Of a DNA stretch of 64,000 nt, positions 46,235 through 64,000 are shown piece by piece. The notes below the pieces were generated by a model. It had not been told where the DNA came from and searched no databases. It was given only the letters and a program-made list of their open reading frames with translations. Positions within the stretch are counted from its first letter, which is position 1. Every line of letters starts with the position of its first letter. Source of the stretch: Candidatus Eiseniibacteriota bacterium (lineage in GTDB: Bacteria > Eisenbacteria > RBG-16-71-46 > CAIMUX01 > VGJL01); assembly GCA_041946735.1 (NCBI GenBank), contig JBHGAY010000019.1, positions 49,594 to 113,593 of the forward strand, written 5' to 3'. A program made the position numbers and the translations under genes.

Positions 46235-46469
46235 CGAACTACCTCCTCGATTCCCGGGAACGTCGCCACGGCAAAAGCCACGGCCGACTAACCCGTACCG
46301 GCCGGTCGGTTCCCGGGATTCTAGCATCGGCGCGGAAGGCCCACAACGTCACCACAGATCTGTACGGTGAAACGAGTTTCGTGCGGGCGCCCGTCCGGAT
46401 CGCGGTCTCCGCCCCGGTTGCTCCGGGGTCTTTCGGGTTTCGTTTCATGTTCCGAGCGGCACCGAACGG

Positions 46470-46871: not shown

Positions 46872-49800
46872 CTACGGCAGCGTGATCGTGATCGGCCACG
46901 AGCAAGGCTCGATGCCCTGCACCGTGAAGGTGAGAGTGACCACCGGCATCGAGGGGCAGTCATTCCCCAGCGGCGGATAGAAGACGTAGGGGGCGACGCC
47001 GTCCTTCGTGACGAGGGTGCCGTTGCGCCCGTCGATTCCGGTCACGAGACCGCCGGGGCTCGCCGACACCGAGACGACCGTGCCGTCCTTCACGGCGTTG
47101 CCGTACGCGTCGGTGACGAAGGCGACGGTGCTCTCGTCGCTCACCATCCCGCCGCCGCACACGAGCTGCGCCGGTCCTCCGCACTGCAGGTCGGCCGGAG
47201 GTCCGGAGGCGACGTTCACGCCGACCGCCTCGGAGACGACCGATCCGGCCTCTGCGGTGATGCGGACGGTCCCGGTCAGGGTGCCGGCGGTCAGCACGGC
47301 GCTCGCCGTCCCGGAGCGGAAGGTCGGCGCCGTGATCACGGCGGCTCCGTTCTCGAAGCGCTCCCCGCCTCCCGGCCCGCCGACGATCCGGAAGGTGACC
47401 CTCGCCCCCTCGCCGACCAGATCTCCGGACGCGTTGGTGACCGTCGCGGTGAGGATCGTCTGCTCGACGCCTCCCGCTCCGTAGACCTCGATCTCCGGTT
47501 CGGCCGCGTCGAGCGCGATCGCCGCCGGGTCGCTCGCCGTGTTCGGAATCCCGATCACGCAGGAGCCATGCTGCGCGTCGACTTCGCAGCCGACGACGGC
47601 GATTCCGTCTCCGCCGGGGAGGAGCCCCGACGCCGCGTAGACGGCGCTCGCGCGCCCCCCTTCGGTTCGTGAGTAGAGCGCGCCCGGATAGGCCGTCCCG
47701 GTGATACGCCCCTCGTCGACCGAGACTCGGACCACGGTCGAGTCGGCAACCGGATTGCGGTAGCGATCGAGCACGCGGAAGTGGACGGTCGTCGTGTCGT
47801 CGAGCGCGACGGTCGCGTCGGTCGCCCAGACGGTGAGGTCCTCGGCGGGCCCCGGAGCGATCAGGAAGTTGCGGCGGTTGCTCTCCATCACACCGTAGCG
47901 CGCGACCAAGGTCATCGGACCGGGGAGCGTCCCGGTCAGGAGAGGCACGAGGACCTTGCCGTCGGAACCGGTCGTGCGCGTCACCTCGCGCGTGCCTGCG
48001 CCTTCGATCCCCTCTCCGCCGTTCGGGCCGGAGACGATCGACACCTCGATCGGGAATCCGGCTCCGCAGGGGCGTCCCTGCGCGTCGATCGCGATCACCT
48101 CGAGCGTCGTCTCGTCCGTCCCTCCGGCGTCCTTGACGACGAGCCGGGTCGCCGGGCTGGTGAGCGTGAGCCCGGCGATCGACACCGGCGAGGTCGGGAT
48201 CCTCACGAGGGCGATGCAGGACAAGTCGGTCCCTTCGGCATGGCAGGTGATCCGCGCGATTCCATCGTCGCCGGGACGGGCGACGGGGCACTGGAAGAGG
48301 GCGCGGGCGACGCCGTTGCTGGAAATGCTCGTCGCTGGACCGTCCATGCCCTCGATGATCCCCCAGTCCGACTCGAAGCGCACCCACGCGCCATCGACCG
48401 GATTGTGCCGCTCGTCGTAGAGATGGACGAGGATCTCGGAGGTCCCTTCCGTGTCGATTTCCTCGGGATTCGCCTCACAGAAGAGGCCGGCCGGAGGACC
48501 GGACGCGATCTGCACGGTGATCGTGCGCTGCGCCGCTCCGGCTTCCGCCAGCACCTGCACGAGCCCCGGCGCGGTCCCCGCCTGGAGCACGGCGATTGCC
48601 TCCCCGTCGGCGTTCGTCTGCGTCGTGAAGACGCCTTCCTGCCCGCCGAGGATCGTCTCCCCTTCGTCCGGTCCGGACGCGATCGTGAAGCGGACGGTGA
48701 GGCCGGCCGGGACGCGCGCGCCGAGAGCGTCGAAGCAGGTCGCCGTGAGCGTGGCCGCGTCGTCGCCACCGCTGCCCCGCGTGCGGATCGACTCGTTGTC
48801 GGTGACGAGGTCGAGCCTCGTCACCGGCGGGAGCGAGAGGAGCTGGATCGTGATCTCCTCGGAGACGCCGTCGACGGTCGCCTTGAGGGTCGTCTCGCCA
48901 GGCTCCATCCCGGAGACGAGATCCACGTAGGCGCGACCGCCGTCGCCGGTCACGACGCTCGCCGGAACCGAACCGATCGCGTTCCAGGTGCGGTCGCCGT
49001 TCTGGTCGCGCCGGAGCCGATCGACGCCGGGGGTCCAGACTCCGTTGCCGTCGACGTCGTCGAACGGCTCGCCGGCCGCGAGGAGGATCCGCTTGCCGGG
49101 CAAGGCCGTCTGGTTGACGTCCCACACCTGGATCGACACCGGCGCACGGCTCGTGCCGTCCGCGTAGATCGGTCCTCCCTCGGCCTCGAGAGACATCCGG
49201 TAGGCGGAGGGCATCCGCAGGAGATGGACGATCGCCTGCGCCTCGACGCCGCGCGTGCGCGCCTGGATCGTCACGTCTCCCGGATCGACGCCGGCGCGAT
49301 AGAGCACCGTCGCCGTGCCGTCGTGCTGGGTCGTGGCGTGGGAGCCGATCGCGCCCATCACGTCCCACCGTCCGTTGCCGTTCGTGTCGCTGAAGATGTC
49401 GGTGGGGTCGGTGTACTGCCCATCGCCGTCCAGGTCCTCGAACGGCTCGCCGGCCGTGAACTGCACCACCACTCCCTGCACCGGACGCCCCTCCCAGTCG
49501 GTGACGATCGCGTAGACCTCCGACTCGCGCAGCCCGTCCGCCATCATCTCCGACTCGACCGCGTGCACCTCGAGGAGCAGCGTCGTCGGGTGGAAGACGA
49601 TCGCGAAGTCGGTCTCGCCGTCATCGGACGAGGCGTGAACCCAGGTGGTGCCCGGCGTGGAGGCCGCGCGGATCGTGAACTCGGCCGTCCCCGATCCGTC
49701 CGTGACGACTGCCGCGGGAACGGTGCCGAGCGGATCCCAGGAGCCGTTCTGGTTCAGGTCTCCGCCCTGGAGGAGCTGATCGCCGCTCGTGAAGGCCCCG

Positions 49801-50393
49801 TCCCGGTCGTTGTCGACGAAGCGGTCGCCTGCCGCGAGCCGCACGGTGGCGTTCGCGAGCGGTTCTCCATCGAGCCCGCGCGTGACGTGCACCTGCAATG
49901 AAAGCAGGCTCGTTCCGTCGGCCGGGATCGCGGTCGCGTTGGAGGGCGAGGAGATGGTCAACACGTCGGAGCCGGCCTGGCTCGCCTGCAGCAGCAGCTG
50001 CACGTAGCTCGTCGACTCGCCGCTGCGCGCCTTGAGCGTGACCAGGCCCCAGTAGCCCCGGTCGGCGCGGTAGAGCGCCTCGGCCCAGCCGCTCGCGTCG
50101 GTCGTCGCCGCCTGCGGCGCGAACGTGCCCGACTCGCGGTCGAGCATCTCGCCGAAGAGCACCTGCTTACCTGCCGCTCCGGTCACCCCGTCGTCCAGGA
50201 CGACCCGCGCTCGCACGAGCGTCGAGTCGCCGGGACCGAGGATCGCCGTAGCGACGGTAAGGGTTTCCATCCGCCAGGTTTCCCCGGAGGACGGACCGGT
50301 CGAGGAATCGTCGCCGCAGCCGCCGGTGAGCGACAGCAGGACGGCGGCCGCGAGGAGCAGCATGGATGAAGCGATCGGATGGGACGCGCGCAC
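46872..50393 (-). CDS. Large surface lipoprotein with invasin/intimin-type Ig (Big_1-like) repeats and Ca-binding DxDxDG loops
   Basis: Lipobox LTGGC; repeated IPADG/MMADG/IYADG, TDASG.A and D.YGN.V.DGT.V motifs; three G(E/D)xFxDxDxDG inserts. Confidence 0.8.
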   Translation of the reverse strand: MRASHPIASSMLLLAAAVLLSLTGGCGDDSSTGPSSGETWRMETLTVATAILGPGDSTLVRARVVLDDGVTGAAGKQVLFGEMLDRESGTFAPQAATTDASGWAEALYRADRGYWGLVTLKARSGESTSYVQLLLQASQAGSDVLTISSPSNATAIPADGTSLLSLQVHVTRGLDGEPLANATVRLAAGDRFVDNDRDGAFTSGDQLLQGGDLNQNGSWDPLGTVPAAVVTDGSGTAEFTIRAASTPGTTWVHASSDDGETDFAIVFHPTTLLLEVHAVESEMMADGLRESEVYAIVTDWEGRPVQGVVVQFTAGEPFEDLDGDGQYTDPTDIFSDTNGNGRWDVMGAIGSHATTQHDGTATVLYRAGVDPGDVTIQARTRGVEAQAIVHLLRMPSAYRMSLEAEGGPIYADGTSRAPVSIQVWDVNQTALPGKRILLAAGEPFDDVDGNGVWTPGVDRLRRDQNGDRTWNAIGSVPASVVTGDGGRAYVDLVSGMEPGETTLKATVDGVSEEITIQLLSLPPVTRLDLVTDNESIRTRGSGGDDAATLTATCFDALGARVPAGLTVRFTIASGPDEGETILGGQEGVFTTQTNADGEAIAVLQAGTAPGLVQVLAEAGAAQRTITVQIASGPPAGLFCEANPEEIDTEGTSEILVHLYDERHNPVDGAWVRFESDWGIIEGMDGPATSISSNGVARALFQCPVARPGDDGIARITCHAEGTDLSCIALVRIPTSPVSIAGLTLTSPATRLVVKDAGGTDETTLEVIAIDAQGRPCGAGFPIEVSIVSGPNGGEGIEGAGTREVTRTTGSDGKVLVPLLTGTLPGPMTLVARYGVMESNRRNFLIAPGPAEDLTVWATDATVALDDTTTVHFRVLDRYRNPVADSTVVRVSVDEGRITGTAYPGALYSRTEGGRASAVYAASGLLPGGDGIAVVGCEVDAQHGSCVIGIPNTASDPAAIALDAAEPEIEVYGAGGVEQTILTATVTNASGDLVGEGARVTFRIVGGPGGGERFENGAAVITAPTFRSGTASAVLTAGTLTGTVRITAEAGSVVSEAVGVNVASGPPADLQCGGPAQLVCGGGMVSDESTVAFVTDAYGNAVKDGTVVSVSASPGGLVTGIDGRNGTLVTKDGVAPYVFYPPLGNDCPSMPVVTLTFTVQGIEPCSWPITITLP

Positions 50394-50596
50394 GGCAACC
50401 TCCTGGGTGGACCTACCCGCAACGGGTACCCGAGTCCCGCTGGGAGCGGGACTCCCCCCGGAGGTTTTCGACCACTCGGACGGATCCCTACACCGTTTCG
50501 ATGAAGGAGGCCGGCTTCGAACGCGGAACGGAGAAGAAAGCGGGCCGGATTGGGGAATCCGGCCCAGCGAAGGCGCGGCGCCGCCTCACGGACGGC

Positions 50597-50836
50597 TCAA
50601 GCGGTCTTCTCCTCTACCTGGAGCTTGTCTGCCTGGAGTTTGCGGACGGCGGTCGCCTTCGCGCCCTTCGGCCCTTGCGCGAAGTCGAACTCGACGGCGT
50701 CCCCTTCCGCGAGGCTACGGAAGCCCTCTCCGTCGATCACGCTGAAGTGGACGAAGACGTCCCCGGAGCCGTCCTCCGCCTGGATGAATCCGTAGCCTTT
50801 CGCATCGCTGAACCACTTGACCCGTCCCTTCGGCAT
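50597..50836 (-). CDS. cspA: Cold-shock protein
   Basis: [15 protein letters not shown] (RNP1), DVFVHFS (RNP2), QGPKG. Confidence 0.95.
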
Positions 50837-50959
50837 TCCGTCCCCTCCTCGAATCGGGCACGTGGGGGGGGCGGCGCGCTTGCGGCCCAGCCCCCGTCGT
50901 TGCGGGCGGCAGAACCGTGCCGCGGCCATCGAGACGATGCGGCACGCTCTGCGCGGCGG

Positions 50960-50988
50960 AGTCTACCATCGCCGTTGTCGGCGGTCAA
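50960..50988 (-). promoter_or_regulatory. Sigma-70 promoter of cspA
   Basis: TTGACC-N17-TAGACT with extended TG; implies a long (about 115 nt) 5' UTR, typical of csp genes. Confidence 0.7.
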
Positions 50989-51063
50989 TCGAACGCGGGG
51001 ACACGGACGCGGGGCACGAACGGCGACCGCTGCGCTGCTGCACAGTCACTCCGCCGCCGGTGG

Positions 51064-51708
51064 TCAGCGGAAGAACGCCCCTGCGATCGAGTGCGGAGCG
51101 TCCCGGAACAGGAAGGTGAGGCGTCCGATCAGCAAGCTGATGCGAGCCATCACCGTGTAGCCGTAGGAAGCGCCGAAGCTGACCATGAGAAACCAGATCC
51201 CGAGCCTCGCCGTCCCCCCCGCCACGCCGCGGTGCTGCACCGAGAAGAAGAAGTAGAAGAGCGAGGCCAGGAGGCCGATCACCAGGATCCAGTTGTCGAT
51301 CGTCGAGCCGATGTGGCCCGTCCAGAGCGGCACGAGGTTCGCGCGGATCTGCGGCACGAGATCGCCCTGCGCGAAGCCGATCACGGCGAGCCCGGAGTAC
51401 GCTCCGATCAGCAAGCCCATCGGCCACCGTGACAGCCAACCGATCCGGTCGACCAGGCGGGTGAAGAGGAGCAGGACCAGCGCGAGCGGGATCAGCTCGA
51501 GCAGGTCGCCATCGTGCACGAGCGGGTCCCACAAGTTGGGACGGAACACCTGGTGGAACTCGAGCGCCAGGTAGTAGCCGGCCGCCAGCCCGACGAAGAG
51601 ATGCTCCGCGAAGCGGTACACCGGGTTGTCTTTATAGAGGAAGGAGAGGATCGCGAGGGTCAGGATGGCCCCCACGATCGCGCCGAAGGCGTCGCCGAGC
51701 CCGGTCAT
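51064..51708 (-). CDS. Uncharacterised polytopic membrane protein (GlmL-linked cluster)
   Basis: About 6 hydrophobic segments; LYKDNPVYRFAEHLFVG; FGASYGYTVMARISLLIGR; ATGA overlap. Confidence 0.75.
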   Translation of the reverse strand: MTGLGDAFGAIVGAILTLAILSFLYKDNPVYRFAEHLFVGLAAGYYLALEFHQVFRPNLWDPLVHDGDLLELIPLALVLLLFTRLVDRIGWLSRWPMGLLIGAYSGLAVIGFAQGDLVPQIRANLVPLWTGHIGSTIDNWILVIGLLASLFYFFFSVQHRGVAGGTARLGIWFLMVSFGASYGYTVMARISLLIGRLTFLFRDAPHSIAGAFFR

Positions 51709-52538
51709 CGCGACTCCCCCGGCTTCCGCCTTCCGGTCCAGGCGAGGACGTTGCCGGCGATGATGAAGAGCAGGATCACGAGATGGCCGAGGCTCTGCGC
51801 GTCCATTCCGCGCACCGCGTCCCCCTCCGTCCCGAGAAGCTCCTCGTACTCCGCCGCCCCGGCAAGCCCGCCCAGCAATCCCTGAAGCTGCCCCGCCTGC
51901 ACGTACGGGTAGTACTCCGGGGCGCTCACGGCGGTCGTCCCCGCCACGATCGGCACGTCGAATCTCGTCCGCACCTGCTGCACCCATTCCTTCGTGCCGG
52001 GATAGCCGGCGGAGATGTTCACGATCAGGCGGATCTGATCGAAGTTGCGGATCCCGCGCATCACCGGCAGCGCCGTCACCGGGTTGCCGCGCGCGTCCCG
52101 CGGATACGTTCCGGGGATCGACGTGCCGAGACGCACCATCACCGCCTCGCGCCCCTCCTTGAAGCCGAGATTGACGAAGTCGACGCCGTATCGCTTGCCC
52201 ATCCGGGCGCCGGTCTCCTCGAACGCGCGGTCGACGAGCGGCGGCGCGGCCGGCCAGAGGCTTCCGGAGACGACGCGCAGGTCCTTGCGGAACGCCTGCT
52301 GCATCGAGGAGACCAGCATCGGGTAGAGCTCCGGCATCGATCCCGGATCGAAGTCGGTCGCGAGGTAGATGACGCTTCCCGCCGGCAGATCCTCGATCGC
52401 CTTCTCGTACGCGATGACGAACGGAGTCGGCCGGATCTGGAAGCCGATCCGCACGAGGAGCGGAATCAGCACCGCGATCCCCACGGCCAGGAAGATCCAG
52501 CGGCGGTCGAGATCGAGGAGGAATCGACGCACGCTCAT
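51705..52538 (-). CDS. Uncharacterised membrane-anchored alpha/beta protein (GlmL-linked cluster)
   Basis: N- and C-terminal TM helices flanking a soluble domain; FVNLGFKEG; YYPYVQAGQLQGLLGGLAGAAEYE; MDAQSLGH. Confidence 0.75.
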   Translation of the reverse strand: MSVRRFLLDLDRRWIFLAVGIAVLIPLLVRIGFQIRPTPFVIAYEKAIEDLPAGSVIYLATDFDPGSMPELYPMLVSSMQQAFRKDLRVVSGSLWPAAPPLVDRAFEETGARMGKRYGVDFVNLGFKEGREAVMVRLGTSIPGTYPRDARGNPVTALPVMRGIRNFDQIRLIVNISAGYPGTKEWVQQVRTRFDVPIVAGTTAVSAPEYYPYVQAGQLQGLLGGLAGAAEYEELLGTEGDAVRGMDAQSLGHLVILLFIIAGNVLAWTGRRKPGESR

Positions 52539-52544
52539 CTCACT

Positions 52545-53165
52545 TCACTCCGCCCCGATCACGCCCCGCTCGAGCCCGAGCAGGATCTTCAGCCCTGTCG
52601 CGATGGCGCCGAGCGCGGCGCCGATCAGGATCGCCCGCTTCGCGGCGAGCTGCGGGTAGTTCATGATCCACTCCGAGACGGTGGGGAACCGGTCCCAGAT
52701 CGCCGCCCCGACCGGGACGCGCCCGATCATCACGAGCACGGCGGCGACCGCCAGGAGCCCCGCCTCCCAGCTCCGGATCCGGAACGCGCGGTAGGCGGCG
52801 GAGGCGATGAAGAAGGCGAGCAGCGCGAACATCGTCCCCTGCATCGGCACGTAGGCGTTGAGGTAGAGCCAGTCGAAGGGGGTTCCCGGATCGATCCCGC
52901 CGATCAATCCGATCGCCGCCATCGCCACGACTCCGGCGAGGAGCGGGATCGAGTACGGCCATCCTCCTTCCTTTCGCTGCAGCTTGCGCAGGTGGATCCG
53001 CCCGACGTTCGCCACACCGAGAACGACCGCCGCGGCCGCGATCACGATGATCCACTCCTGCAGCCGCGCCGAAATCGTCTGCACGAACGGCAGCGGCGAG
53101 AAGAACTGCAGGATCATGAACCATCCGAAGAAGATCGCGAGCAGCAGGGGCACTTCGCGGCGCAT
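52545..53165 (-). CDS. Uncharacterised polytopic membrane protein (GlmL-linked cluster)
   Basis: 5-6 TM helices; TMFALLAFFIASAAYRAFR; KRAILIGAALG; LLGLER. Confidence 0.75.
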   Translation of the reverse strand: MRREVPLLLAIFFGWFMILQFFSPLPFVQTISARLQEWIIVIAAAAVVLGVANVGRIHLRKLQRKEGGWPYSIPLLAGVVAMAAIGLIGGIDPGTPFDWLYLNAYVPMQGTMFALLAFFIASAAYRAFRIRSWEAGLLAVAAVLVMIGRVPVGAAIWDRFPTVSEWIMNYPQLAAKRAILIGAALGAIATGLKILLGLERGVIGAE

Positions 53166-53168
53166 CGC

Positions 53169-54290
53169 TTACTGCGTCTCCAGCCAGTGGCTCAGGCCGC
53201 TCAGCTGCGCCGTCTCGAGGACGGCGCCGACGACGAGGAGCACGAGAATCAACACCTTCATCCAGTCGGTCCCCTTCAGCGTGCCGACCAGGTCCGGCTC
53301 GCGCGAGAGGTAGGCGGAGGTCGCGAAGAACTCCTCGCCGATCAGCGTGTAGTCGCACGACACGACGAAGAACGGAAGCTGATGGATGTTCGCCGTCCCG
53401 GCGATCTGCACGGCGCCGGTCGAGAAGCCGGTCTCGGCGAGCATGAGGCTCTCCGCGAAGAACGACCCGAGGAACAGGTTCGCCGCCGGCTTCTCCCGCA
53501 GCATGATGCCGCTCGTCGCGGCGGTGAACGCGAACTGCTCGTCGCTGAGATAGCGGATGTCGTCGCGGCGGAACGCGGAGGGCCGGCCCGCGTCGAGATA
53601 CGCCTGGCGCACCGTCTCCTCCGCCATCGGCACCACGAACGAGCGGCAGATCGGAACGATCAAGCGCGTCTCGTACTTCGCCACCATCTTCGCCACGTTG
53701 CTCAGGATCACCATGCTGTAGATCGTCTGGATGTTGTTCGCCTCGTCGATCCCCGGCACGTAGAGGACCGACCGGCCCATCTCGGTCGCGCGCCCCACCG
53801 CCTCCTCGATCGCGTCGAGCCCGGGGATCCGGCGGATGAAGAGATCGGCCCGCCGTTTCGCGAGCCGCCGGAAGTAGAGCAGGAGCGCAAGGAAGACGGC
53901 GAGGAAGAGGAGCAGGTTGAACCGGGCGACGTCGAAGAGGCTGCGGCGCGGAACGGCGCCCGCGGCGCCGGTGAGCGCCGTGCCGAGCGTGTCCTCGAGG
54001 CGGTAGGCGAAGGTCTTGCCGTCGGCTAAGCGCGTGGAGTCCCCGTCGATCCAGGAGCCGCTCGTCGCCAGAACGCGCGCGACGGGAACGAAGCCGTTCC
54101 CGTCGTCTCGAGCGATCGTCAAGACCCCCGCCGGCGCGACCGACGCGTCGGCGGGGGTCCACTCGAGCTGGATCCGCCCCCCTCCATCGTTCGGTATGTC
54201 GCGAGCGGTCAGGATGAGCGCCCCCGCGCCGTCGGGCGCGAGTGTCGCGAGAGTCGCGGCGGCCAGAACCGGGAGGATCCGGCGGATCAT
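53169..54290 (-). CDS. Membrane protein with N-terminal exported FN3-like domain and C-terminal DUF6754-like domain
   Basis: Signal peptide; ARDIPNDGGGRIQLEW FN3-like start; TM helix; IRRIPGLDAIEEAVGRATEMGR; GSFFAESL..AETG; YTLIGEE. The DUF name is from memory and unverified. Confidence 0.7.
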   Translation of the reverse strand: MIRRILPVLAAATLATLAPDGAGALILTARDIPNDGGGRIQLEWTPADASVAPAGVLTIARDDGNGFVPVARVLATSGSWIDGDSTRLADGKTFAYRLEDTLGTALTGAAGAVPRRSLFDVARFNLLLFLAVFLALLLYFRRLAKRRADLFIRRIPGLDAIEEAVGRATEMGRSVLYVPGIDEANNIQTIYSMVILSNVAKMVAKYETRLIVPICRSFVVPMAEETVRQAYLDAGRPSAFRRDDIRYLSDEQFAFTAATSGIMLREKPAANLFLGSFFAESLMLAETGFSTGAVQIAGTANIHQLPFFVVSCDYTLIGEEFFATSAYLSREPDLVGTLKGTDWMKVLILVLLVVGAVLETAQLSGLSHWLETQ

Positions 54291-54303
54291 CTTCCTCCGA
54301 TCT

Positions 54304-55425
54304 CTACGATTCGATCATTTCCACATTCGCCCTCGGCAGCACCGCCTCCTCCCCACCATCGAACCGCACCTTCAACACGCGGACCTTCGCCTCGGTCTCG
54401 AGCTTCTGCAGCTCCGGCGGCAGCCCCACGACCTCGCCGAGGCGCCCGAAGTACGGCATCCGGATCACGCGGACCGGCGAGCCGATCGCGAGCCCCTCGT
54501 TCGCCACCTCGCGCGCCGCGCTCGCCTTCTCCCCCGACATCGGGATCACGATCTCCGGCCGCATCACGCCGGCGCGGATCTGCGTCGCGCCGTTGACCGA
54601 CACCTTCTTGCCCTCGAAGCGGCCGAGCAGGTCGAAGGTCCTCCGCGCCATCGTCATCGCGCCGAATCCCTCGGTGACCACGATCGTGGCGCCGATCGAC
54701 TCCTGGCCGGTGATCGCAACCCCGAGATCATACCCGAGAAGCGAGCGAAGGTCCTGGTCGTCCAAGCCTCCCACGACGACCGCCTTCACGCCGAGCTGGA
54801 TCGCCCGCCGGAGGGCCGGAATCCGGATCAGCGACCCGCCCACCACGACCTTGCCGGCGTGCTCCGGCTTGAGGTGCGCCTCGGTCAGCTCCACGTCGGG
54901 CGATGGGACCACGATCTGCAGCTGGCCGACCGTCTCTCCGCCGACGCCGAAGATCCCCTGGAGGAACGCCCCCTCCGCCTCGACGACGACCCCTTCGCCC
55001 GGCATCACCTCGCCGACGACGCCGTCGATGTAGGCCTCGACCTGCACCGGGATCGGCGGCTCGCGGATGATCACCTGCCCGGTGACGTCGGAGATCGATT
55101 CGACGGTCCCCTCCACCGGGGAACGGCAGTGGGACTTGAAGAGGCCGAAGAACGACTTCGAGGTGGCGATCACCTCGTCTTTGGCGACCTGGTCCCCTTC
55201 CTTCTTGAGCATGAACTCGCGGAGGTCCTGCTGCGCGACCCCGAGGATCGAGGCGGCCTTGACCGGCTGCACGTTCCCCGGCAGGTCCGTCCGCGCGACG
55301 ACCGTCTCCGCCTGGACCTTGTCTCCCTTCTTCACCACGACCTGTCCCTTGAGCGGGAGGCGGCGGACCTTCAGGATCCGCGTTCGCTCCGTCACCCGGA
55401 GACCCGGCGTATAGGCATGCGCCAC
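54304..55425 (-). CDS. Uncharacterised soluble protein with barrel-sandwich-hybrid-like repeats and C-terminal KOW/SH3-like domain
   Basis: VKKGDKVQAETVVA; KKEGDQVAKDEVIA...SPVEGTVESI; GVKAVVVGG; IGSPVRVIRMPYFGRLGEV...VLPRANVE. Confidence 0.7.
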   Translation of the reverse strand: MAHAYTPGLRVTERTRILKVRRLPLKGQVVVKKGDKVQAETVVARTDLPGNVQPVKAASILGVAQQDLREFMLKKEGDQVAKDEVIATSKSFFGLFKSHCRSPVEGTVESISDVTGQVIIREPPIPVQVEAYIDGVVGEVMPGEGVVVEAEGAFLQGIFGVGGETVGQLQIVVPSPDVELTEAHLKPEHAGKVVVGGSLIRIPALRRAIQLGVKAVVVGGLDDQDLRSLLGYDLGVAITGQESIGATIVVTEGFGAMTMARRTFDLLGRFEGKKVSVNGATQIRAGVMRPEIVIPMSGEKASAAREVANEGLAIGSPVRVIRMPYFGRLGEVVGLPPELQKLETEAKVRVLKVRFDGGEEAVLPRANVEMIES

Positions 55426-55470
55426 GACCTTCCCCCTTCCTTTCCCTTTCCCTATCCGCGCGCGCGCCGG

Positions 55471-57378
55471 CTACCGGCCCACGCCCGCCGTCGCCGCCGC
55501 GGCCGCCGGAGCCGCCTTCGCCGCAGTCGCCGCGATCGTGCGGAACTGCCCCGGATAGACGTCGAGCGCCTCGCACCACTCCACCAGCTTGCGGATCCGC
55601 TCCTGCCGCTCCTTCGGCAGCGCGAACGGGCGTCCGCGGCCGTCGAAGATGATCCCCGCGACGCCGCCCTTGAGCGTCGCCTTCATGCTCTTCCCCTTGC
55701 CCGCGCCGATGTCGAAGCCTCCGGCCGGCTCGAGCGTCGCCTCGACCGTCTTGCCGACCTCGAGCGGGATCAGCCGCATCCCGCCGAACGGCAGGTCGAT
55801 CTCCTCGGTCTTGCCGCCGGGGAGCGCGAGCGTCGCCTTCAGGCAGCGCTGCCCCTCCTTCCCCTGGCCGATCGGAGCGACGCTCGTCCCGAGCCGCACG
55901 AGGCAGTCGAGGAAGAAGACGTCGGTGGCCGCCTTGCGCCGCGCCTCGGCGAGCAGATCGCTGTCGGGCGCGTCGGCGAGAACGCCGAGCTGCGGCATCA
56001 TGAAGATCGAGTCGACCGCCAGCTCCGTGATCCCCTCGGGGAGGAACGCGTCGAGCATCATCAAGGCGGACTGCACGCGGCGCGGCGCGTGGGAGAGCAC
56101 CCCGCCCGATCCGACGAGCAGGTCCAGGTCGCGCATGTTGATCAGCGACTCTCCGCTCGCCGTCTGGTCGAACGTGTCGGAGATCGTCCGCTCCTTCTGC
56201 ACTCCCTTGAGCCCGACCGCGAGCGACTTGTGCTGCTCGAAGGCGAGGCGCAGCGCCTCGCGCGAGATCGCCTGCTCGATCAGGAGCTCCTCGAGCGCCT
56301 GCGGGATCGTCGTCGGCCGGATCATCTTGTTCTTGATCCGGTTGCGCAGGTCCCCCTCGTCGATCGGGAACGGGATCCAGCGCAGGATGTTGTCGAGCCC
56401 GGCCTCGGCGAGGACGTTGGAGATCGAGTAGCTCATCCCGAGGTTCGCGCTCACCGTGCGGACGAAGACGTCCTGGAAGTAGCTGAAGACGTCGGTCGTG
56501 GCGCCGCCGATGTCGACGCCGATCACCTGGATCTTCTCCCGTTTCGCGACCGCCTGGATCATGTCGCCGACGGCCGCCGGGGTCGGCTTGATCGGGTTCG
56601 GCGCCGTCCAGTCCATGAGCTTCTGGTAGCCCGGCGCGTGCTTCATCACGTGCTCCATGAACTGGTTGTGGATTTCGTGGCGCGCCGGCATCAGGTTCTC
56701 GCGCTCCATCACGGGACGGATGTTGTCGGTGACGACGAGGGCGCACTTGTCGGCCAGGCGCTCCTCGATCTCCTTGCGCGCGTCTTTGTTGCCGGAGTAG
56801 ATGATCGGCAGATCGTAGCCGGCGCCGAGGCGCGCCTTCGGGTCGGCCGCAGCGATGATCTCCGCCAGCTCGACGACATGGGTCACCGTCCCGCCGTCGA
56901 TCCCGCCGGAGAGCAGGATCATGTCGGGGCGCAGCTCACGGATGCGCCGGATCTTCTCGTGCGGAAGGCGGCCGTCGTTGCTGGCGATGATGTCCATCAC
57001 GATCGCGCCGGCGCCCAGAGCGGCGCGCTCGGCCGATTCGCCGGTCATCGACTTGACGACGCCGGTCACCATCATCTGCAGCCCGCCGCCCGCGCTCGAG
57101 GTCGAGACGTACAGGTCGACCCCCTCCGTGTCGGTCGCGGGGGACATGATGCGCTCGCCGTCCAGGATCTTCCGGCCGGCCAGCTCCTCGACCTCCATGA
57201 TCGCGTTCAGCACCCCGCGCGTGACGTCCTCGAACGGAGCCTCGACCGTGGTCGGAGCCTCGCCGCGGAAGAGCAGCCGGTAGACGTCCCCCTGCTTTCC
57301 GATCAGGATCGCCTTGGTCGTCGTCGATCCGCAGTCGGTCGCCAGGATCCAGTTCAGCCCTTTCCCTTGCGAAACCAT
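55471..57378 (-). CDS. GlmL/MutL (glutamate mutase L)-family ASKHA ATPase, long form (635 aa)
   Basis: ILATDCGSTTTKA, SSAGGGLQM, PDMILLSGGIDGG, VDIGGATTDVFS, RTVSANLGM, VGSGGVLSH; C-terminal extension ending GIIFDGRGRP. Confidence 0.85.
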   Translation of the reverse strand: MVSQGKGLNWILATDCGSTTTKAILIGKQGDVYRLLFRGEAPTTVEAPFEDVTRGVLNAIMEVEELAGRKILDGERIMSPATDTEGVDLYVSTSSAGGGLQMMVTGVVKSMTGESAERAALGAGAIVMDIIASNDGRLPHEKIRRIRELRPDMILLSGGIDGGTVTHVVELAEIIAAADPKARLGAGYDLPIIYSGNKDARKEIEERLADKCALVVTDNIRPVMERENLMPARHEIHNQFMEHVMKHAPGYQKLMDWTAPNPIKPTPAAVGDMIQAVAKREKIQVIGVDIGGATTDVFSYFQDVFVRTVSANLGMSYSISNVLAEAGLDNILRWIPFPIDEGDLRNRIKNKMIRPTTIPQALEELLIEQAISREALRLAFEQHKSLAVGLKGVQKERTISDTFDQTASGESLINMRDLDLLVGSGGVLSHAPRRVQSALMMLDAFLPEGITELAVDSIFMMPQLGVLADAPDSDLLAEARRKAATDVFFLDCLVRLGTSVAPIGQGKEGQRCLKATLALPGGKTEEIDLPFGGMRLIPLEVGKTVEATLEPAGGFDIGAGKGKSMKATLKGGVAGIIFDGRGRPFALPKERQERIRKLVEWCEALDVYPGQFRTIAATAAKAAPAAAAATAGVGR

Positions 57379-57806
57379 CGCCTCCCCTTTTCCCCCTTCT
57401 CGGCCCGCTTCCGAGCCTTCTCTTCCCGCTCGGCGCGGGCTCTCTCCTCCTCGAGCTCCTCGACCCTGCGGATCAGGCGCTCGACGTTCTTACGGTCCTC
57501 CATGAGGGCCGTGAACCGGTCGTAGCTGGCGACGTTCAAGAACGCCTTCACGAACGGCTCGAAGAAGACCAACGCCTGGCTGCCGACGAAGGAGAGCGGC
57601 TTCGACGACTCCAGGAAGAAGACCGCCGGGACGGCGAGCCCCATCCGAACGATCTTCGTGGCGACCGCGGTGAGAAGCTTCTCGTCCGGGTCCGGCTCCA
57701 CTCCGTCCGGCGGCGGCGCGCCGCCGCCCTGCGGCTTCGAGCCTCCGGGCGGCGAGCCGCCCGGAGGCGGTGCGCCCGCAGGCATGCCGCCGCCCGGCCG
57801 CCTCAC
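57354..57806 (-). CDS. Small hypothetical protein with Pro/Gly N-terminus, amphipathic core and charged tail
   Basis: MGLAVPAVFFLESSKPLSFVGSQALVFFEPFV...EDRKNVERLI; overlaps both neighbours; alternative start is ATG 57785. Confidence 0.7.
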   Translation of the reverse strand: MRRPGGGMPAGAPPPGGSPPGGSKPQGGGAPPPDGVEPDPDEKLLTAVATKIVRMGLAVPAVFFLESSKPLSFVGSQALVFFEPFVKAFLNVASYDRFTALMEDRKNVERLIRRVEELEEERARAEREEKARKRAEKGEKGRRWFRKGKG

Positions 57807-58264
57807 GCCCCTTTCGCGTCCGCTCTCCACCGGGGATCCTGCACCCACTCGGCCGTCGGCTGCACGTGCTCTCGAACGAACCGGACGACCTCGTCCCGCT
57901 CGCGCGGGCCGAACCGGAGCCGGATCGCCCGGTACTCCTCCAGCCAGGACGACTTCGAAAACGGGCTCAGCGTCAGCCCGTTGCCGTCGAGCAGGCAGCG
58001 CCGGAAGGCGCCCCACTCCCTCTCGCTCTTCGAGAAGCGGCGGATCACCGTCAGCTTCGCGTCCTCCAGAACGAACCGGGTCGGGAAGTAGAACGACTCG
58101 AGGGAGAGGAACAGGACCGCGAAGGAGAAGAGCCCCCAGTAGACGTGCCCGGAATAGAACGACGCGCCGACGCTGAAGGCGAGGATCGCCGCGAGCACGG
58201 CGATCCCCCTCCTCCTGCGCTCCGCGAACGGATGGATCGTCCAGTCCAGGACGGTCTCGCTCAC
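57803..58264 (-). CDS. Small membrane protein (2 TM plus PH-like beta domain)
   Basis: GTGA overlap with gcvPB; WTIHP, two TM helices, FYFPTRFVL, LSPFSKSSWLEEYRAI. Confidence 0.7.
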   Translation of the reverse strand: MSETVLDWTIHPFAERRRRGIAVLAAILAFSVGASFYSGHVYWGLFSFAVLFLSLESFYFPTRFVLEDAKLTVIRRFSKSEREWGAFRRCLLDGNGLTLSPFSKSSWLEEYRAIRLRFGPRERDEVVRFVREHVQPTAEWVQDPRWRADAKGA

Positions 58265-59727
58265 TCCTTCTCCTTCGGCTCCCACCGAACGATCAGATTG
58301 CGCGCCGCGGCCCCCTCGTCCAGCCTCCGGACCGGCGTGTCATGCGGCGCTCCGGTCACGATCTCCGGCTGCTCGCGAACCTCCCGCGCGATCTGCCGCA
58401 GCGCGCCCGCGAACTCGTCGAGGCTCGTGCGGCTCTCGCTCTCGGTCGGCTCGATCATCAGGCAGTCGTGCACGATCAGCGGGAAGCTGACCGTCGGGGC
58501 ATGCACCCCGAAGTCCAGCAGCCGCTTCGCGACGTCGATGTTCTTCACCCCGTGCTTCTTCATCCAGGTGCACGACACGACGAACTCGTGCATGCAGGGA
58601 CCGGGGTAGGCGACGGGGTAGTCGGCCTCGACGAGCTTCATCAGGTAGTTCGCGTTGACGATCGCCGCGCGGCTGATCTCGGCGAGACCGTCGGAGCCGA
58701 GCGACCGCAGATAGGCGAACGCGCGCAGGATCATGCCGACGTTGCCGGCATACGGATGCAGGCGCCCGACCGAGCGCGGCCGGTCGGTATCGAGGTAGAA
58801 GCGGCCGTCCGCCTCCTCGATCACCGGCGCCGGCAGGAACGGGATCAGCTTCGCCTTCACGCCGACCGGCCCGGCCCCCGGTCCTCCCCCGCCATGCGGC
58901 GTCGAGAAGGTCTTGTGGAGGTTGATGTGGACCATGTCGGCCCCCATGTCGCCGGGACGGGTCAAGCCGAGCATCGCGTTCAGGTTCGCGCCGTCCATGT
59001 AGAGGAGCCCGTCGACGGAATGCAGGATGTCGGCCGCCTCGCGAATCTCGCTCTCGAAGTGGCCGAGCGTGTTCGGGTTCGTAACCATGAGCGCGGCGGT
59101 CTCGGCGTTCACCGCCTCGCGCAACGCGGCGATGTCGAGCCGGCCGTCGGGCCGCGACTTCAGCTCCCGCGTCTCGTAGCCGACCATGTGCGCCGTCGCG
59201 GGGTTCGTCCCGTGCGCCGAGTCGGGGATCAGGACGACCTTCTTCTTGTTCCCCTGCGCGTCGTGATAGGCGCGGGCGAGCCGGATGCCGAGAAGCTCCC
59301 CTTGCGCTCCGGCCGCCGGATGCAGGCTGACGGTATCCATTCCGACGACAGCGGCCAGCTCGCGGGTGAAGCGATGGAGAATGCCGAGCATTCCCTGGAC
59401 CAGCTCGGGCGGCGCCATCGGGTGGAGTCCCGCGAGTCCCGGAAGGCGAGCGAGATCCTCGTTCACCTTCGGGTTGTACTTCATCGTGCAGGAGCCGAGC
59501 GGGTAGATCGCCTTGTCGACGTGATGGTTGAAGGTCGAGATCCGCACGTAGTGGCGCACGACCTCCGGCTCCGGCACCTCGGGGAGGCGCGGAGCCTCGG
59601 AGCGAAGCGCCCCGCCGGGGATCATCTCGGCGAGCGGCCGCTCGGGGACGTCGTTCTCCGGGAGGCGATAGCCTTCGGCTCCCGGGAACGACCGGTCGTA
59701 GATCAGACGAAAATCGCGCGGGGTCAT
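58261..59727 (-). CDS. gcvPB: Glycine decarboxylase subunit 2
   Basis: YPLGSCTMKYNP, PDSAHGTNPA, YMDGANLNA, HINLHKTFSTPHGGGGPG, MIEPTESE. Confidence 0.96.
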   Translation of the reverse strand: MTPRDFRLIYDRSFPGAEGYRLPENDVPERPLAEMIPGGALRSEAPRLPEVPEPEVVRHYVRISTFNHHVDKAIYPLGSCTMKYNPKVNEDLARLPGLAGLHPMAPPELVQGMLGILHRFTRELAAVVGMDTVSLHPAAGAQGELLGIRLARAYHDAQGNKKKVVLIPDSAHGTNPATAHMVGYETRELKSRPDGRLDIAALREAVNAETAALMVTNPNTLGHFESEIREAADILHSVDGLLYMDGANLNAMLGLTRPGDMGADMVHINLHKTFSTPHGGGGPGAGPVGVKAKLIPFLPAPVIEEADGRFYLDTDRPRSVGRLHPYAGNVGMILRAFAYLRSLGSDGLAEISRAAIVNANYLMKLVEADYPVAYPGPCMHEFVVSCTWMKKHGVKNIDVAKRLLDFGVHAPTVSFPLIVHDCLMIEPTESESRTSLDEFAGALRQIAREVREQPEIVTGAPHDTPVRRLDEGAAARNLIVRWEPKEKE

Positions 59728-61067
59728 GCCAGCACCCTCCTCATCGCCGCCGCCAGCCGGTCCATCTCCTCGCGGGTCCTCTTCTCGGTCACGGCGACCA
59801 GGAGCCGGTCCTTCCATTCGGGACGGACACGGCCGAGGTCGATGCCGGCGAGGATGCGCTCCTCGTCGTAGATCGCGCGCGCGACCTCGGCCGCCGGACG
59901 CGGCAGGCGCAGCGCGAACTCGAAGAAGAACGGGCCCTGCGGCTCGCGCCGCACGCCGGGGATCGAGGTGAGGGACTTCTCGAGGTAGTGAGCCTTCTGC
60001 AGGCAGAGGTCGGCCATCCGGGAGAGACCTCCGGGGCCGAGCAGGGAGAGCGTGATCGTGAAGCCGAGCGCGACGAGCGAGTTGTTCGTGCAGATGTTCG
60101 ACGTCGCCTTCTCGCGGCGGATGTGCTGCTCGCGCGTCTGGAGCGTGAGGACGAAGCCGCGCCGTCCTTCGCGGTCGACCGTCTCGGCGACGAGGCGGCC
60201 GGGCAGGCGGCGGATCAGCTCCTTCTTGCAGGCGAAGAGGCCGCAGGCGGGACCGCCGAAGGCCGGCCCGCCTCCCAGGTTCTGCCCTTCGCCGACGACG
60301 ATGTCGGCGCCGAGCTTGCCGGGGGCCTCGAGGCGCGCGAGCGCGACCGGATCGGAGGAGACGACGAGCAGCGCGCCGGCCGCGTGGACCGCGTCGGCGA
60401 TCGGCCCGAGCGTCTCGATTCCACCGAGGAAGTTCGGCTGCTGCACGAGGAGCGCGGCGGTCTCGCCGTCGAGGTGCTTCGCGAGTTCGGCGGGCGAAAG
60501 CGGCCCTTCCGTCCCGACGTCGACGAATGAGAGACCCGGCGGAACGCCGTAGGTCTCGAGGATGGCGCGATGGTGAGGGTGGAAGGTGCGGGCGACCAGG
60601 ATCTTGTTGCGGCCGGTCGCGCCCGACGCCATCAGCGCCGCTTCGGCGGCCGCGGATCCCGCGTCGTACATCGAGGCGTTGGCGACCGGAAGGCCGGTCA
60701 GCTCCGAGACCATCGTCTGGAACTCGAAGATCGCCATGAGCGTCCCCTGGGAGACCTCAGGCTGGTAGGGCGTGTAGGCGGTGTAGAACTCGCTGCGGAG
60801 CAGCATGTGCTGCACCGCGGCGGGAACGTCGTGGTCGTAGAGGCCTCCACCGAGGAAGGAAGGCGTGGTCGCCGGGTCGTAGTTCTTGATCTCCGCTTCG
60901 CGGAAGAGACGCCGCACCTCGAGCTCGCTCTGTCCCTTGGGAATGTCGATCGGACGGCCGAGCCGAAGCGACTCCGGAAGGTCGGGAATCAACTCCTCGA
61001 AACGCGAGACGCCGATCGCGCGAAGCAGCTCTTTCTCTTCCCCGGGACCGTGTCCCGTGTACGGCAT
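59724..61067 (-). CDS. gcvPA: Glycine decarboxylase subunit 1
   Basis: FYTAYTPYQPEVSQGTL, ANASMYD, LQTREQHIRREKATSNICTN. Confidence 0.96.
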   Translation of the reverse strand: MPYTGHGPGEEKELLRAIGVSRFEELIPDLPESLRLGRPIDIPKGQSELEVRRLFREAEIKNYDPATTPSFLGGGLYDHDVPAAVQHMLLRSEFYTAYTPYQPEVSQGTLMAIFEFQTMVSELTGLPVANASMYDAGSAAAEAALMASGATGRNKILVARTFHPHHRAILETYGVPPGLSFVDVGTEGPLSPAELAKHLDGETAALLVQQPNFLGGIETLGPIADAVHAAGALLVVSSDPVALARLEAPGKLGADIVVGEGQNLGGGPAFGGPACGLFACKKELIRRLPGRLVAETVDREGRRGFVLTLQTREQHIRREKATSNICTNNSLVALGFTITLSLLGPGGLSRMADLCLQKAHYLEKSLTSIPGVRREPQGPFFFEFALRLPRPAAEVARAIYDEERILAGIDLGRVRPEWKDRLLVAVTEKRTREEMDRLAAAMRRVLA

Positions 61068-61462
61068 CAGGCGCCTCCCTCGAGGCCGCGGACCATCTCC
61101 TCGTACGCCTCCGGCGTCAGGAGCGCGTCGAGCTCCTTGGCGTTCTGGATGCGCGCGCGGATCATCCACCCCTCGTCATAGGGAGAGCGGTTCACGACGC
61201 TCGGATCGTTCGCGATCGCCTCGTTCACCTCGGCCACTTCGCCGTTCACCGGACTGAAGAGGTCGCTCACCGTCTTTACCGCCTCCACCGATCCGAACGG
61301 CTGCATGTGATGCAGAGCCGTCCCCGCCGACGGCAGCTCGACGAAGACGATGTCGCCGAGCGCGCCCTGCGCGTAGTCGGTGATGCCGATCTTCACGTGG
61401 TCCGGCCCGTCGGGACGGACCCACTCGTGCTCGTTCGTGTAGCGGCAGTCCTTCGGAATCAT
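61067..61462 (-). CDS. gcvH: Glycine cleavage H protein
   Basis: HEWV, GITDYAQGALGDIVFVELP, VEAVKTVSD (lipoyl lysine), NRSPYDEGW. Confidence 0.96.
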   Translation of the reverse strand: MIPKDCRYTNEHEWVRPDGPDHVKIGITDYAQGALGDIVFVELPSAGTALHHMQPFGSVEAVKTVSDLFSPVNGEVAEVNEAIANDPSVVNRSPYDEGWMIRARIQNAKELDALLTPEAYEEMVRGLEGGA

Positions 61463-61482
61463 CCTCCCTCCCTCCTCCACCC

Positions 61483-62586: not shown

Positions 62587-62634
62587 CCTTCCCTGGTGAT
62601 GAAACGTGGTAATCGTTGAACGCGCAACGCGTTC

Positions 62635-62664
62635 ATGCTAGGGGCGCTGCCGGAGGGGTGTCAA
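62635..62664 (-). promoter_or_regulatory. Sigma-70 promoter of the gcv operon
   Basis: Perfect TTGACA (62659-62664), 18-nt spacer, TAGCAT (62635-62640), about 50 nt above gcvT. Confidence 0.7.
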
Positions 62665-62712
62665 GGCCGGCGGTCCAGGAGCCATCATCAGGAAAGGACA
62701 TCGGGGGACATC

Positions 62713-63798: not shown

Positions 63799-63820
63799 GC
63801 GCACGGCGGTCCGCTCGGGG

Positions 63821-64000
63821 TCAGCGACTCGCTACGATTCGCTGCCCGCGCGTCCGGAGGAGGCCGCCGCCCAGGTCCCAGCGAAGCTCGTCGGGCGCGG
63901 TGCCTTCGACCCGCAGGCGCCCCTCGTGGATCAGCTTGTGGTGCGCCGAGCAGACGCACACCTGGTTGGCCGCGACGTCCGGGCCGCCGAGACCGAGCGG
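63821..64000 (-). CDS. C-terminus of an HNH endonuclease-domain protein (5' part outside the window)
   Basis: Manual translation gives PLGLGGPDVAANQVCVCSAHHKLIHEGRLRVEG...*, matching the GG-x5-N-x4-C-x2-HH-x3-H end of HNH domains. Confidence 0.7.
   Translation of the reverse strand, partial: PLGLGGPDVAANQVCVCSAHHKLIHEGRLRVEGTAPDELRWDLGGGLLRTRGQRIVASR

Follow-up and report, generated by a model that had tools for sequence, protein, structure and literature searches.

A putative ATPase gene pair and a four-gene membrane cassette behind the glycine cleavage genes of an uncultured soil bacterium represent a widespread membrane system

Introduction

The ATPase-like protein GlmL has, to our knowledge, no established function. 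More is known about the reactivase of glycerol dehydratase: the alpha subunit joins an Hsp70-like ATPase to a swiveling domain that holds and releases the beta subunit, and ATP hydrolysis frees this alpha/beta-fold subunit from the swiveling domain (PMC7674605). In this work we describe eight genes, g1–g8, that occupy positions 58264 down to 51064 on the minus strand, immediately behind gcvPB, in a 64,000-nucleotide DNA stretch (hereafter, the window) of contig JBHGAY010000019.1 from an uncultured soil bacterium. They encode a MutL-family protein (g3), its partner (g4), a four-protein membrane cassette containing a DUF6754 protein (g5–g8) and two small proteins (g1 and g2). Our main conclusion is that g1–g8 represent, in one lineage, a membrane system that is widespread and has not been described.

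With moderate confidence we favour the reading that a single motor, made of g4 and an ATPase of the actin/Hsp70/sugar-kinase fold (ASKHA), would energise interchangeable four-protein membrane units for transport. A first-pass annotation of the window, made from the DNA letters and predicted reading frames, knew of no characterised function for these genes, and our searches agree with it. We found no paper, solved structure or curated family that states the role of the system, and no paper for DUF6754, PF20539, PF13941 or TIGR01319 in the searchable literature, outside which most subscription journals lie.

Gene content of the locus

The G+C content of the window is 66–72%, so that long spurious open reading frames (ORFs) are plentiful in it; still, one consistent set of eight genes was obtained. 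The central pair consists of g3 (55471–57378, 635 aa), encoding a putative ASKHA ATPase that matches the Pfam family MutL, and its partner g4 (54304–55425, 373 aa). They are followed by g5 (53169–54290, 373 aa), whose product contains a signal peptide, an FN3 domain, a transmembrane (TM) segment, the DUF6754 domain and a second TM segment; g6 (52545–53165, 206 aa), polytopic with about six TM segments; g7 (51705–52538, 277 aa), with an alpha/beta domain of about 216 aa between two TM segments; and g8 (51064–51708, 214 aa), polytopic with at least three TM segments, with an overlap of 4 nt between its start and the end of g7. The first-pass annotation had recognized these types of membrane protein but listed them in another order; the actual one is polytopic g6, membrane-anchored alpha/beta g7 and polytopic g8.

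Two genes with GTG starts precede g3. The product of g1 (57803–58264, 153 aa) is a small membrane protein whose N-terminus is a hydrophobic hairpin, followed by a soluble tail, and that of g2 (57354–57806, 150 aa) has a Pro/Gly-rich N-terminus, a hydrophobic segment at residues 47–65 and a highly charged C-terminal tail. A g1 homologue was found at the equivalent position in 17 loci, and g2 homologues stood directly before g3 in 27 loci, including those of Planctomycetota, Latescibacterota and Binatia. No Pfam or NCBIfam family was matched by g1, g2, g6, g7 or g8.

All eight genes are co-oriented, and the junctions given by the first-pass annotation were reproduced exactly from the coordinates. 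Beginning with gcvPB, there are overlaps of 4, 4 and 25 nt, then gaps of 45, 13, 3 and 6 nt and a final overlap of 4 nt. The GTG of g1 at 58264 shares a GTGA with the stop codon of gcvPB, and GAAGGAG stands 5 nt ahead of this start; the GTG of g2 at 57806 likewise shares a GTGA with the stop of g1, and the ATG of g3 at 57378 is preceded by AAGGGGAGG. Shine-Dalgarno-like runs can be read in the sequence before the starts of g1, g2 and g3. The starts of g1 and g2 are choices, the alternatives being a GTG at 58285 and an ATG at 57785, respectively.

Conservation and copy number of the system

To describe the distribution of the system, 80 loci around DUF6754 homologues were collected from contigs representing one genome per species. 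The g5–g8 cassette was complete in 67 of them, 62 having the order g5-g6-g7-g8 and five the order g6-g7-g8-g5. Nine of the 13 incomplete loci were cut by contig ends, and the other four had room downstream. Among the 41 loci with at least 9 kb of upstream sequence, g4 was located upstream of g5 in 27 and absent there in 14; the latter were labelled WOR-3, Cloacimonadota, Zixibacteria and others. In three loci (L016, L017 and L018) the g3-g4 pair was followed by three tandem cassettes. The arrangement is conserved far beyond chance: dozens of loci, belonging to several phyla, show this order.

The same was seen at the level of whole genomes. In total, 151 genomes of the phylum were searched for PF20539 (DUF6754, E≤0.001) and PF13941 (MutL, E≤1e-20): both families were present in 133, DUF6754 only in four, MutL only in one and neither in 13. 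This tally includes the unpublished genome G015, which has both families; if G015 is excluded, both are present in 132 of 150. It should be mentioned that one genome with DUF6754 and without MutL, G055, is a single-contig genome, 90% complete, and that the genome with MutL and without DUF6754 is G114. The co-occurrence of the core genes as a unit, proposed earlier as the point to check, was thus found both in gene order and in the genome tally. DUF6754 is also common: among the 8,000 candidates scored, its clusters at 90% identity exceeded 7,700 in number. It was found in none of 14 control genomes.

The numbers of the two families per genome differ. The genome from which the window originates (4.89 Mb, 94.78% complete) carries six full cassettes on six contigs, while g1, g2, g3 and g4 are each present once. 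The first-pass annotation had described g1–g8 as a self-contained machine. This part of it did not hold, since five further DUF6754 cassettes lie elsewhere in the genome and none of them has an ATPase of its own. In the 28 genomes of the same order (including the window's own, G000), two to nine DUF6754 matches were found per genome versus one to three MutL matches, these being numbers of matches and not exact copy numbers.

The ATPase g3 and its partner g4

The first-pass annotation had named a GlmL-family ATPase and a DUF6754-like protein, and both names were borne out by Pfam (PF13941 and PF20539). The match of g3 to PF13941 has an E-value of 1.3e-118 and a score of 397.1 bits (cut-off 27), and extends over residues 11–470 of the protein and positions 1–437 of the 450 in the profile. 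None of the curated cut-offs of the narrower families was reached: g3 scored 204 bits against GlmL (NF040745, cut-off 475), 193.4 bits against Or-4 (NF040744, cut-off 600) and 158.8 bits against glmL_fam (TIGR01319, cut-off 204.05). Behind the MutL domain there is a beta-rich C-terminal extension of about 165 aa.

The protein is strongly conserved. Averaged over the alignment columns of 22 sequences from several phyla, identity is 71%, and sequences of different phyla share 60–76%. Invariant in all 22 are T14-D-C-G-S-T-T20, K22, D289-I-G-G-A-T-T-D296 and G423-S-G-G426, which we take to be the phosphate-1, phosphate-2 and adenosine motifs. Judging from its sequence, g3 is a putative ATPase of the ASKHA fold with intact nucleotide motifs; no sequence or profile match to any chain of the PDB was found. 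None of the eight genes encodes a mutase according to Pfam. The glutamate mutase E family Met_asp_mut_E (PF06368) was not found in the genome at its completeness of 94.78%, and the single gene with a B12-binding domain is located on contig C4, other than the g3 contig. The earlier remark that no B12 mutase accompanies this GlmL-like ATPase therefore stands.

In 36 of 37 loci, g4 was the gene immediately behind g3. Its structural model, built with a 28-sequence alignment, has a predicted local distance difference test (pLDDT) score of 84.5. After a conserved N-terminal AHAYTPGL, fold matches point to a barrel-sandwich hybrid domain (residues ~16–150), a swivelling beta/beta/alpha domain (~152–299) and a KOW/SH3-like domain (~310–373). 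The barrel-sandwich and KOW-like character named in the first-pass annotation is thus seen in the model, with the swivelling domain in addition. In Pfam only weak matches below the thresholds were obtained (RnfC_N, 20.5 bits with a cut-off of 25.6; NQRA_N, 19 with 25; Biotin_lipoyl, 14.7 with 22.1). Foldseek with g4 gave no full-length match, only matches of the KOW type, one of them at E≤0.001. The swivelling domain matches by fold the mobile (phosphohistidine) domain of phosphoenolpyruvate (PEP)-utilising enzymes, and the swiveling domain of the reactivase presumably belongs to the same fold class.

Two carrier roles were considered for g4 and rejected. A lipoyl or biotinyl carrier is not expected because the modification lysine is not conserved: in the 28 sequences the position of K90 is occupied by K or R, within a motif that varies between SKS, SRS, GRS and NRP. 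Nor is g4 a phosphohistidine relay, because its swivelling domain lacks a conserved histidine: there is no His among the invariant or near-invariant columns of residues 152–299, and the loop that corresponds to what we take to be the location of the phospho-accepting His in PEP-utilising enzymes reads T251-E-G-F-G255.

The prediction of a g3–g4 complex gave an ipSAE interface score of 0.78 in three of three runs, versus 0.00 for the best of three controls. At least 86% of the contacts (168–179 in number) were shared between runs, with partner pLDDT of at least 84. The ipSAE mark used was attained by 116 of 157 solved complexes and by 2 of 215 mismatched pairs, a calibration that is approximate for our own alignments. 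On the g4 side the predicted interface comprises the invariant T251-E-G-F-G255 loop, D222-D223 and the KOW motifs; on the g3 side, residues 341–365, A293 in the phosphate-2 loop and residues 430–433 beside the adenosine motif. The vicinity of these residues to the nucleotide motifs would place g4 at the nucleotide cleft of g3. Natural fusions tell the same: PF13941 is carried by 79 of the 80 longer g4 homologues, for example by P0126 (989 aa), in which a g3 part (57% identity) is joined by a short linker to a g4 part (51% identity) that keeps AHAY(S/T)PGL. These data suggest that g3 and g4 are one functional unit, the soluble motor, and are predicted to bind each other; the large predicted interface and the fusions point to a 1:1 heterodimer.

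The same data bear on the idea that g3 is a scaffold, which would polymerise like MreB, FtsA or ParM and organise the membrane units spatially without energising them. The actin/Hsp70 fold signature and the intact nucleotide motifs of g3 would fit it, and the ASKHA proteins FtsA, PilM and MreB act at membranes through bound partner peptides. However, the nearest families of g3 are GlmL and hydantoinase-type enzymes, not actins, and a large interface together with fusions speaks for a heterodimer with g4. We regard a scaffold as very improbable and keep to a g3–g4 motor.

A second, more distant fused g3-g4-like paralogue was revealed in four genomes of the same order (L093:6601–9168; L094:5963–8998; L095:7200–9806; L096:6146–8446). 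It is a single ORF of 766–1011 aa with 40–43% identity to g3 and 27–35% to g4, and no DUF6754 cassette adjoins it. This paralogue is absent from the window's own genome. Another protein, P0122 (707 aa, from one contig), covers all of g4 (52% identity) together with PF20539 and is an apparent g4–DUF6754 fusion or a read-through; the topology that such a fusion implies is puzzling.

The membrane cassette and its proposed mode of action

The match of g5 to PF20539 (E 2.2e-111, 371.6 bits with a cut-off of 27) covers residues 115–368. According to hydropathy and charge, the FN3 domain of g5 lies outside and the DUF6754 domain of about 200 residues is cytoplasmic, while the domain of g7 is periplasmic and the Lys/Arg-rich termini of this protein are cytoplasmic. 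The FN3 domain was confirmed by a fold search and by a PDB profile search; apart from it, sequence and profile searches of the PDB with g3–g8 revealed no solved relative, and g6, g7 and g8 matched no solved chain at all. The listed matches in the fold search with the g5 model were all to FN3, none reaching the DUF6754 part.

Scanning the members of g6, g7 and g8 one by one against Pfam gave scattered weak matches only. For g6 these were TMD0_ABC in 12 of 37 members (best E 3e-4) and Rnf-Nqr in one of 37 (E 0.066). The nearest clusters of g7 in the ESM Atlas are unnamed (scores 0.97–0.98), and a search restricted to named entries gave no usable match. An ancient 2+2 duplication (A-B-A'-B') was also considered and found no sequence support, the hhalign probability being below 2% for both g5 versus g7 and g6 versus g8.

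Comparison of the six paralogous cassettes of the genome revealed that the cytoplasmic DUF6754 domain is the best kept part, with a mean pairwise identity of 57% and 63 invariant residues out of 200. The most diverged are the N-terminal outward extension of g5 (31%) and, after it, the outward domain of g7 (38%). Conservation inside and divergence outside is the pattern expected from one shared cytoplasmic partner combined with diversified outward specificity. The g5 frames of the cassettes on contigs C10, C12 and C29 (L088, L089 and L091) have 448–602 aa before DUF6754, which suggests larger outward domains than a single FN3 in these paralogues.

From these observations the following mode of action can be proposed. 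The soluble motor would be g3 bound to g4, the latter supplying the swivelling beta/beta/alpha domain. The inner-membrane unit would consist of g5 and g7, with their outward domains, and the polytopic g6 and g8. Given one motor and six diverged membrane units in the genome, the motor would dock on one unit after another through their conserved cytoplasmic DUF6754 domains, and a conformational change powered by the binding and hydrolysis of ATP would then move a substrate at or across the inner membrane. The proteins g1 and g2 would be small membrane accessories of the motor-linked copy. Gene set and order, family co-occurrence, copy ratio, ATP motifs, the predicted complex, fusions, topology and paralogue divergence were computed directly, whereas docking, the conformational change, transport, its direction and its substrate are inferred. 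The ATP-dependent membrane machine foreseen in the first-pass annotation would then be right in kind, with the corrections that its motor is shared and that its link to glycine cleavage is lineage-specific.

The make-up of the motor also admits another role, that of a reactivase-like chaperone or gate, in which g3-g4 would not power transport but would use ATP to hold and release, load or reset the cytoplasmic alpha/beta DUF6754 domain. The membrane units would then be sensors, channels or carriers driven by a gradient. g3 belongs to PF13941, a family that accompanies B12 mutases. An ASKHA ATPase combined with a swivelling domain and ATP-dependent release of an alpha/beta partner is described for the glycerol dehydratase reactivase (PMC7674605), and strands and helices alternate in residues 156–291 of the DUF6754 model. 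Many cassettes are moreover distant from ATPase genes, as in the 14 of 41 loci without an upstream g4. Against this, neither sequence nor fold searches gave a match to a reactivase chain (the top 50 fold matches contained none, although this does not show that the two differ), DUF6754 revealed no motif for binding a cofactor, and the near-perfect co-occurrence suits an obligatory motor equally well. A chaperone role thus seems distinctly unlikely to us, and the motor that energises transport units remains our preferred reading.

Link to the glycine cleavage genes

Upstream of g1 the minus strand carries, as identified by Pfam, gcvT (61483–62586), gcvH (61067–61480), gcvPA (59724–61169) and gcvPB (58261–59817, a GcvP2_C/GDC-P match), the last of them adjoining g1. 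For the analysis of this linkage we used the 24 loci that contain g3 and at least 4 kb of upstream sequence. Glycine cleavage (gcv) genes were present upstream in 19 of them, with gcvPB within 3 kb in 16; as to the remainder, gcvT (L004) or gcvT-gcvH (L006) stands directly before g1, and in L057 gcvPB is 4.7 kb upstream. In two loci outside the 4-kb filter (L013 and L042) gcvPB is also beside g1. No gcv genes were found nearby in five loci of Planctomycetota and Latescibacterota, nor are any among the neighbours of the other five cassettes of the window's own genome. The 19 linked loci were labelled Eisenbacteria-type (12), Dormiibacterota (1) or carried no label (6).

Therefore, the attachment to the glycine cleavage operon reported by the first-pass annotation exists here and in most of the loci examined, but it does not extend to the five Planctomycetota and Latescibacterota loci; it is a lineage-specific synteny of Eisenbacteria-type loci. 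A gene for lipoate-protein ligase was found directly after g8 in L001 and two genes after g8 in L057. Judging by the taxon labels of the linked loci, the position of the system inside an operon of gcv and lipoate-ligase genes may be one inherited arrangement.

Such synteny could mean that the system is an accessory of glycine cleavage or lipoyl metabolism that supplies or exports a substrate, cofactor or product of GcvTHP, with g4 as a lipoyl-like carrier. The preceding gcv genes, the lipoate-protein ligase genes and the lipoyl/biotinyl-like barrel sandwich of the first g4 domain would all agree with it. However, g4 does not keep the lysine at the lipoyl position, linkage is missing from the five loci and five cassettes named above, the linked loci are perhaps a single inheritance, and the system is far more widespread than its linkage to gcv. 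This role is in our opinion most improbable, and for the copy in the window, too, we prefer a transport unit served by a shared motor.

Neighbouring genes and possible cargo

Clues to the cargo were sought in neighbouring genes; they were read locus by locus without a baseline and are not statistical evidence. Several, among them the gcv genes upstream of the copy described here, concern amino acids and peptides. Two S8 subtilases are located beside the C19 cassette and two M16 peptidases beside the C71 cassette; in L054 a TldD/PmbA pair and a pyridoxal phosphate (PLP) enzyme precede g2-g3. Other loci contain an S8 protease (L066), DAO with Fer2_4/Pyr_redox_2 (L067), AFOR with an aminotransferase (L055), acyl-CoA dehydrogenases (L038 and L058) and an M16 peptidase (L001), and M1 and M43 peptidases and an OPT transporter occur near the fused motor paralogues. 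Our leading guess is that the cargo is amino acids or peptides, taken up into the cell, and for the gcv-linked copy glycine or a source of glycine. There were odd neighbours as well: a phosphotransferase system (PTS) enzyme I before L048 and L076, and a fused ATP-binding cassette type 2 (ABC-2) transporter before the Cloacimonadota cassettes.

A number of observations weigh against the reading of one motor that serves many transport units, or against this cargo. In four loci (L040, L048, L060 and L067) several kb lie downstream of the DUF6754 gene and no g6–g8 was detected there by tblastn at E≤1e-5; these genes may be orphans or have strongly diverged partners. Four genomes of 88–98% completeness (G055, G084, G087 and G115) contain DUF6754 without a MutL match, and the genomes of the phylum are kin and thus non-independent. 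The most conserved stretch of DUF6754 (residues 258–316) has a pLDDT below 50 in the g5 monomer model. As for the neighbours, peptidases are common in these lineages, and in other phyla the neighbours are heterogeneous. In L051 (5425–19791) the cassette lies within a V/A-type ATPase operon, with the genes for subunits G, I, E and C before it, F directly after it and A further on. Finally, there are envelope genes: a codirectional gene for a processive family 2 glycosyltransferase (GT2) stands between g4 and g5 in three loci, L001 (2205–9785, with a 1139-aa polysaccharide deacetylase and a TPR protein in the same insert), L008 (7072–9586, with a DUF2270 membrane protein) and L009 (8043–9653), and genes for Wzi-like outer-membrane proteins directly follow g8 in five (L034, L068, L071, L077 and L080).

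The envelope genes raise the possibility of mechanotransmission, in which cytoplasmic ATP hydrolysis would be relayed through the membrane unit to the outward domains of g7 and g5. There it would serve to export, extract or assemble a surface protein, lipoprotein or polysaccharide, in the manner of MacB, LolCDE and FtsEX with their ABC ATPases. The layout of g7, a periplasmic domain between two TM segments, and the outward FN3 of g5 would suit such a function. Besides the GT2 inserts and Wzi-like proteins, PMT_2, PIG-L, GT2, family 4 glycosyltransferase (GT4) and DegT genes flank other loci, and Big_1/invasin Ig-like proteins follow the cassette here and in L004 and, on the opposite strand, in L015, L017 and L018. 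On the other hand, these phyla are rich in envelope genes, which vary here by lineage, the five loci with Wzi-like proteins come from related lineages, and no homology to MacB, FtsX or LolC was found in sequence searches. Six diverged units on one motor would also suit many substrates better than one envelope polymer. We therefore think mechanotransmission unlikely and retain transport by interchangeable units as the preferred reading. Taken further, and only tentatively, this reading can be extended to a third modular kind of primary active transport, unrelated to the ATP-binding cassette (ABC) and energy-coupling factor (ECF) kinds, in which a roaming motor would plug into exchangeable membrane units, each bearing recognition domains of its own on the outside, for the uptake of different nutrients in many uncultured phyla; the gcv-linked copy would feed glycine catabolism.

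Transcription signals and flanking genes

A single promoter-like site (62635–62664, minus strand; TTGACA, 18 nt, TAGCAT), identified by consensus match only, was found upstream of the 12 genes from gcvT to g8, about 49 nt before gcvT; the region contains two such sites versus 0.5 expected. The cold-shock gene downstream of g8 has a promoter-like site of its own (50960–50988, minus strand). The sole strong terminator-like hairpin, with 11 pairs, is located past this gene (50541–50566, minus strand). A terminator between the genes had been named earlier as evidence that would speak against one module; from gcvT through g8 no convincing one was found, only weak sites of 5–6 pairs inside g2. It should be mentioned that the total of four terminator-like sites is no excess over shuffled sequence (4.8). 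With a lone promoter-like site before gcvT and a strong hairpin only after the cold-shock gene, it is plausible from these signals that gcvT to g8 form one twelve-gene transcript. No Rfam family was detected at gathering thresholds in positions 48000–64000, hence no glycine riboswitch in this region.

Further downstream of the cold-shock gene, the minus strand encodes a 1173-aa Big_1/invasin-type protein with Ig repeats (46872–50393), followed by the gene of a PorV-like barrel protein (45260–46327). Upstream of gcvT, positions 62635–63804 contain two overlapping ORFs on opposite strands (387 and 388 aa) without a Pfam match at E≤1e-5.

Comparison with known systems

The conservation of g3 is at the level of a housekeeping protein, and the system is large and common. 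The database label "glutamate mutase L" carried by its ATPase misleads metabolic reconstructions of uncultured phyla. If it is true that one motor serves many membrane modules, the system would be a new class of ATP-driven membrane machine, and this would also explain why genomes of these lineages contain as many as nine cassettes. The g3–g4 pair, with its predicted interface, natural fusions and invariant loops, provides a concrete, testable handle.

Sequence searches map the proteins to none of the ABC, ECF, tripartite ATP-independent periplasmic (TRAP), Rnf or Mrp complexes, among which the first-pass annotation had looked for a possible identity. GlmL/MutL (NF040745, PF13941) and Or-4 (NF040744) share with g3 the whole MutL domain and the ASKHA motifs. 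g3 differs from them in scoring below the curated cut-offs, in its extension of about 165 aa, in the lack of glutamate mutase E in the genome, in its obligate and often fused partner g4 and in its co-occurrence with DUF6754 cassettes. NqrA and RnfC resemble the N-terminal barrel sandwich of g4 only below the thresholds; the swivelling and KOW domains of g4 are unlike either, and no flavin, iron-sulfur (Fe-S) or Rnf/Nqr membrane subunits were found in the cluster. Type VII ABC systems (MacB, LolCDE, FtsEX) have, like g7, a large periplasmic domain between two TM segments and work with a cytoplasmic ATPase; however, no sequence similarity was seen, and the ATPase here is of another class.

The closest likenesses are those of composition and logic. 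In domain composition, the reactivase (DdrAB/GdrAB) appears similar to g3 and g4, which together supply an ATPase fold and a swivelling domain. Here, in contrast, the swivelling domain is on a separate chain or in a C-terminal fusion and is accompanied by barrel-sandwich and KOW domains, there is no B12 enzyme, and the client would be a membrane protein. ECF transporters offer an analogy in having one energising module and scattered, substrate-specific membrane modules, comparable with the six cassettes per motor in this genome and the three tandem cassettes of L016–L018. Unlike in ECF transporters, the energiser here appears to be of the ASKHA type and the membrane modules have four proteins with large domains on both membrane faces; none of the eight proteins matches ABC_tran, EcfT or an S-component at E≤0.1 in Pfam and NCBIfam. 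By analogy, then, the system may work like ECF transporters in its logic and resemble the B12 reactivases in the make-up of its motor, while being a member of neither.

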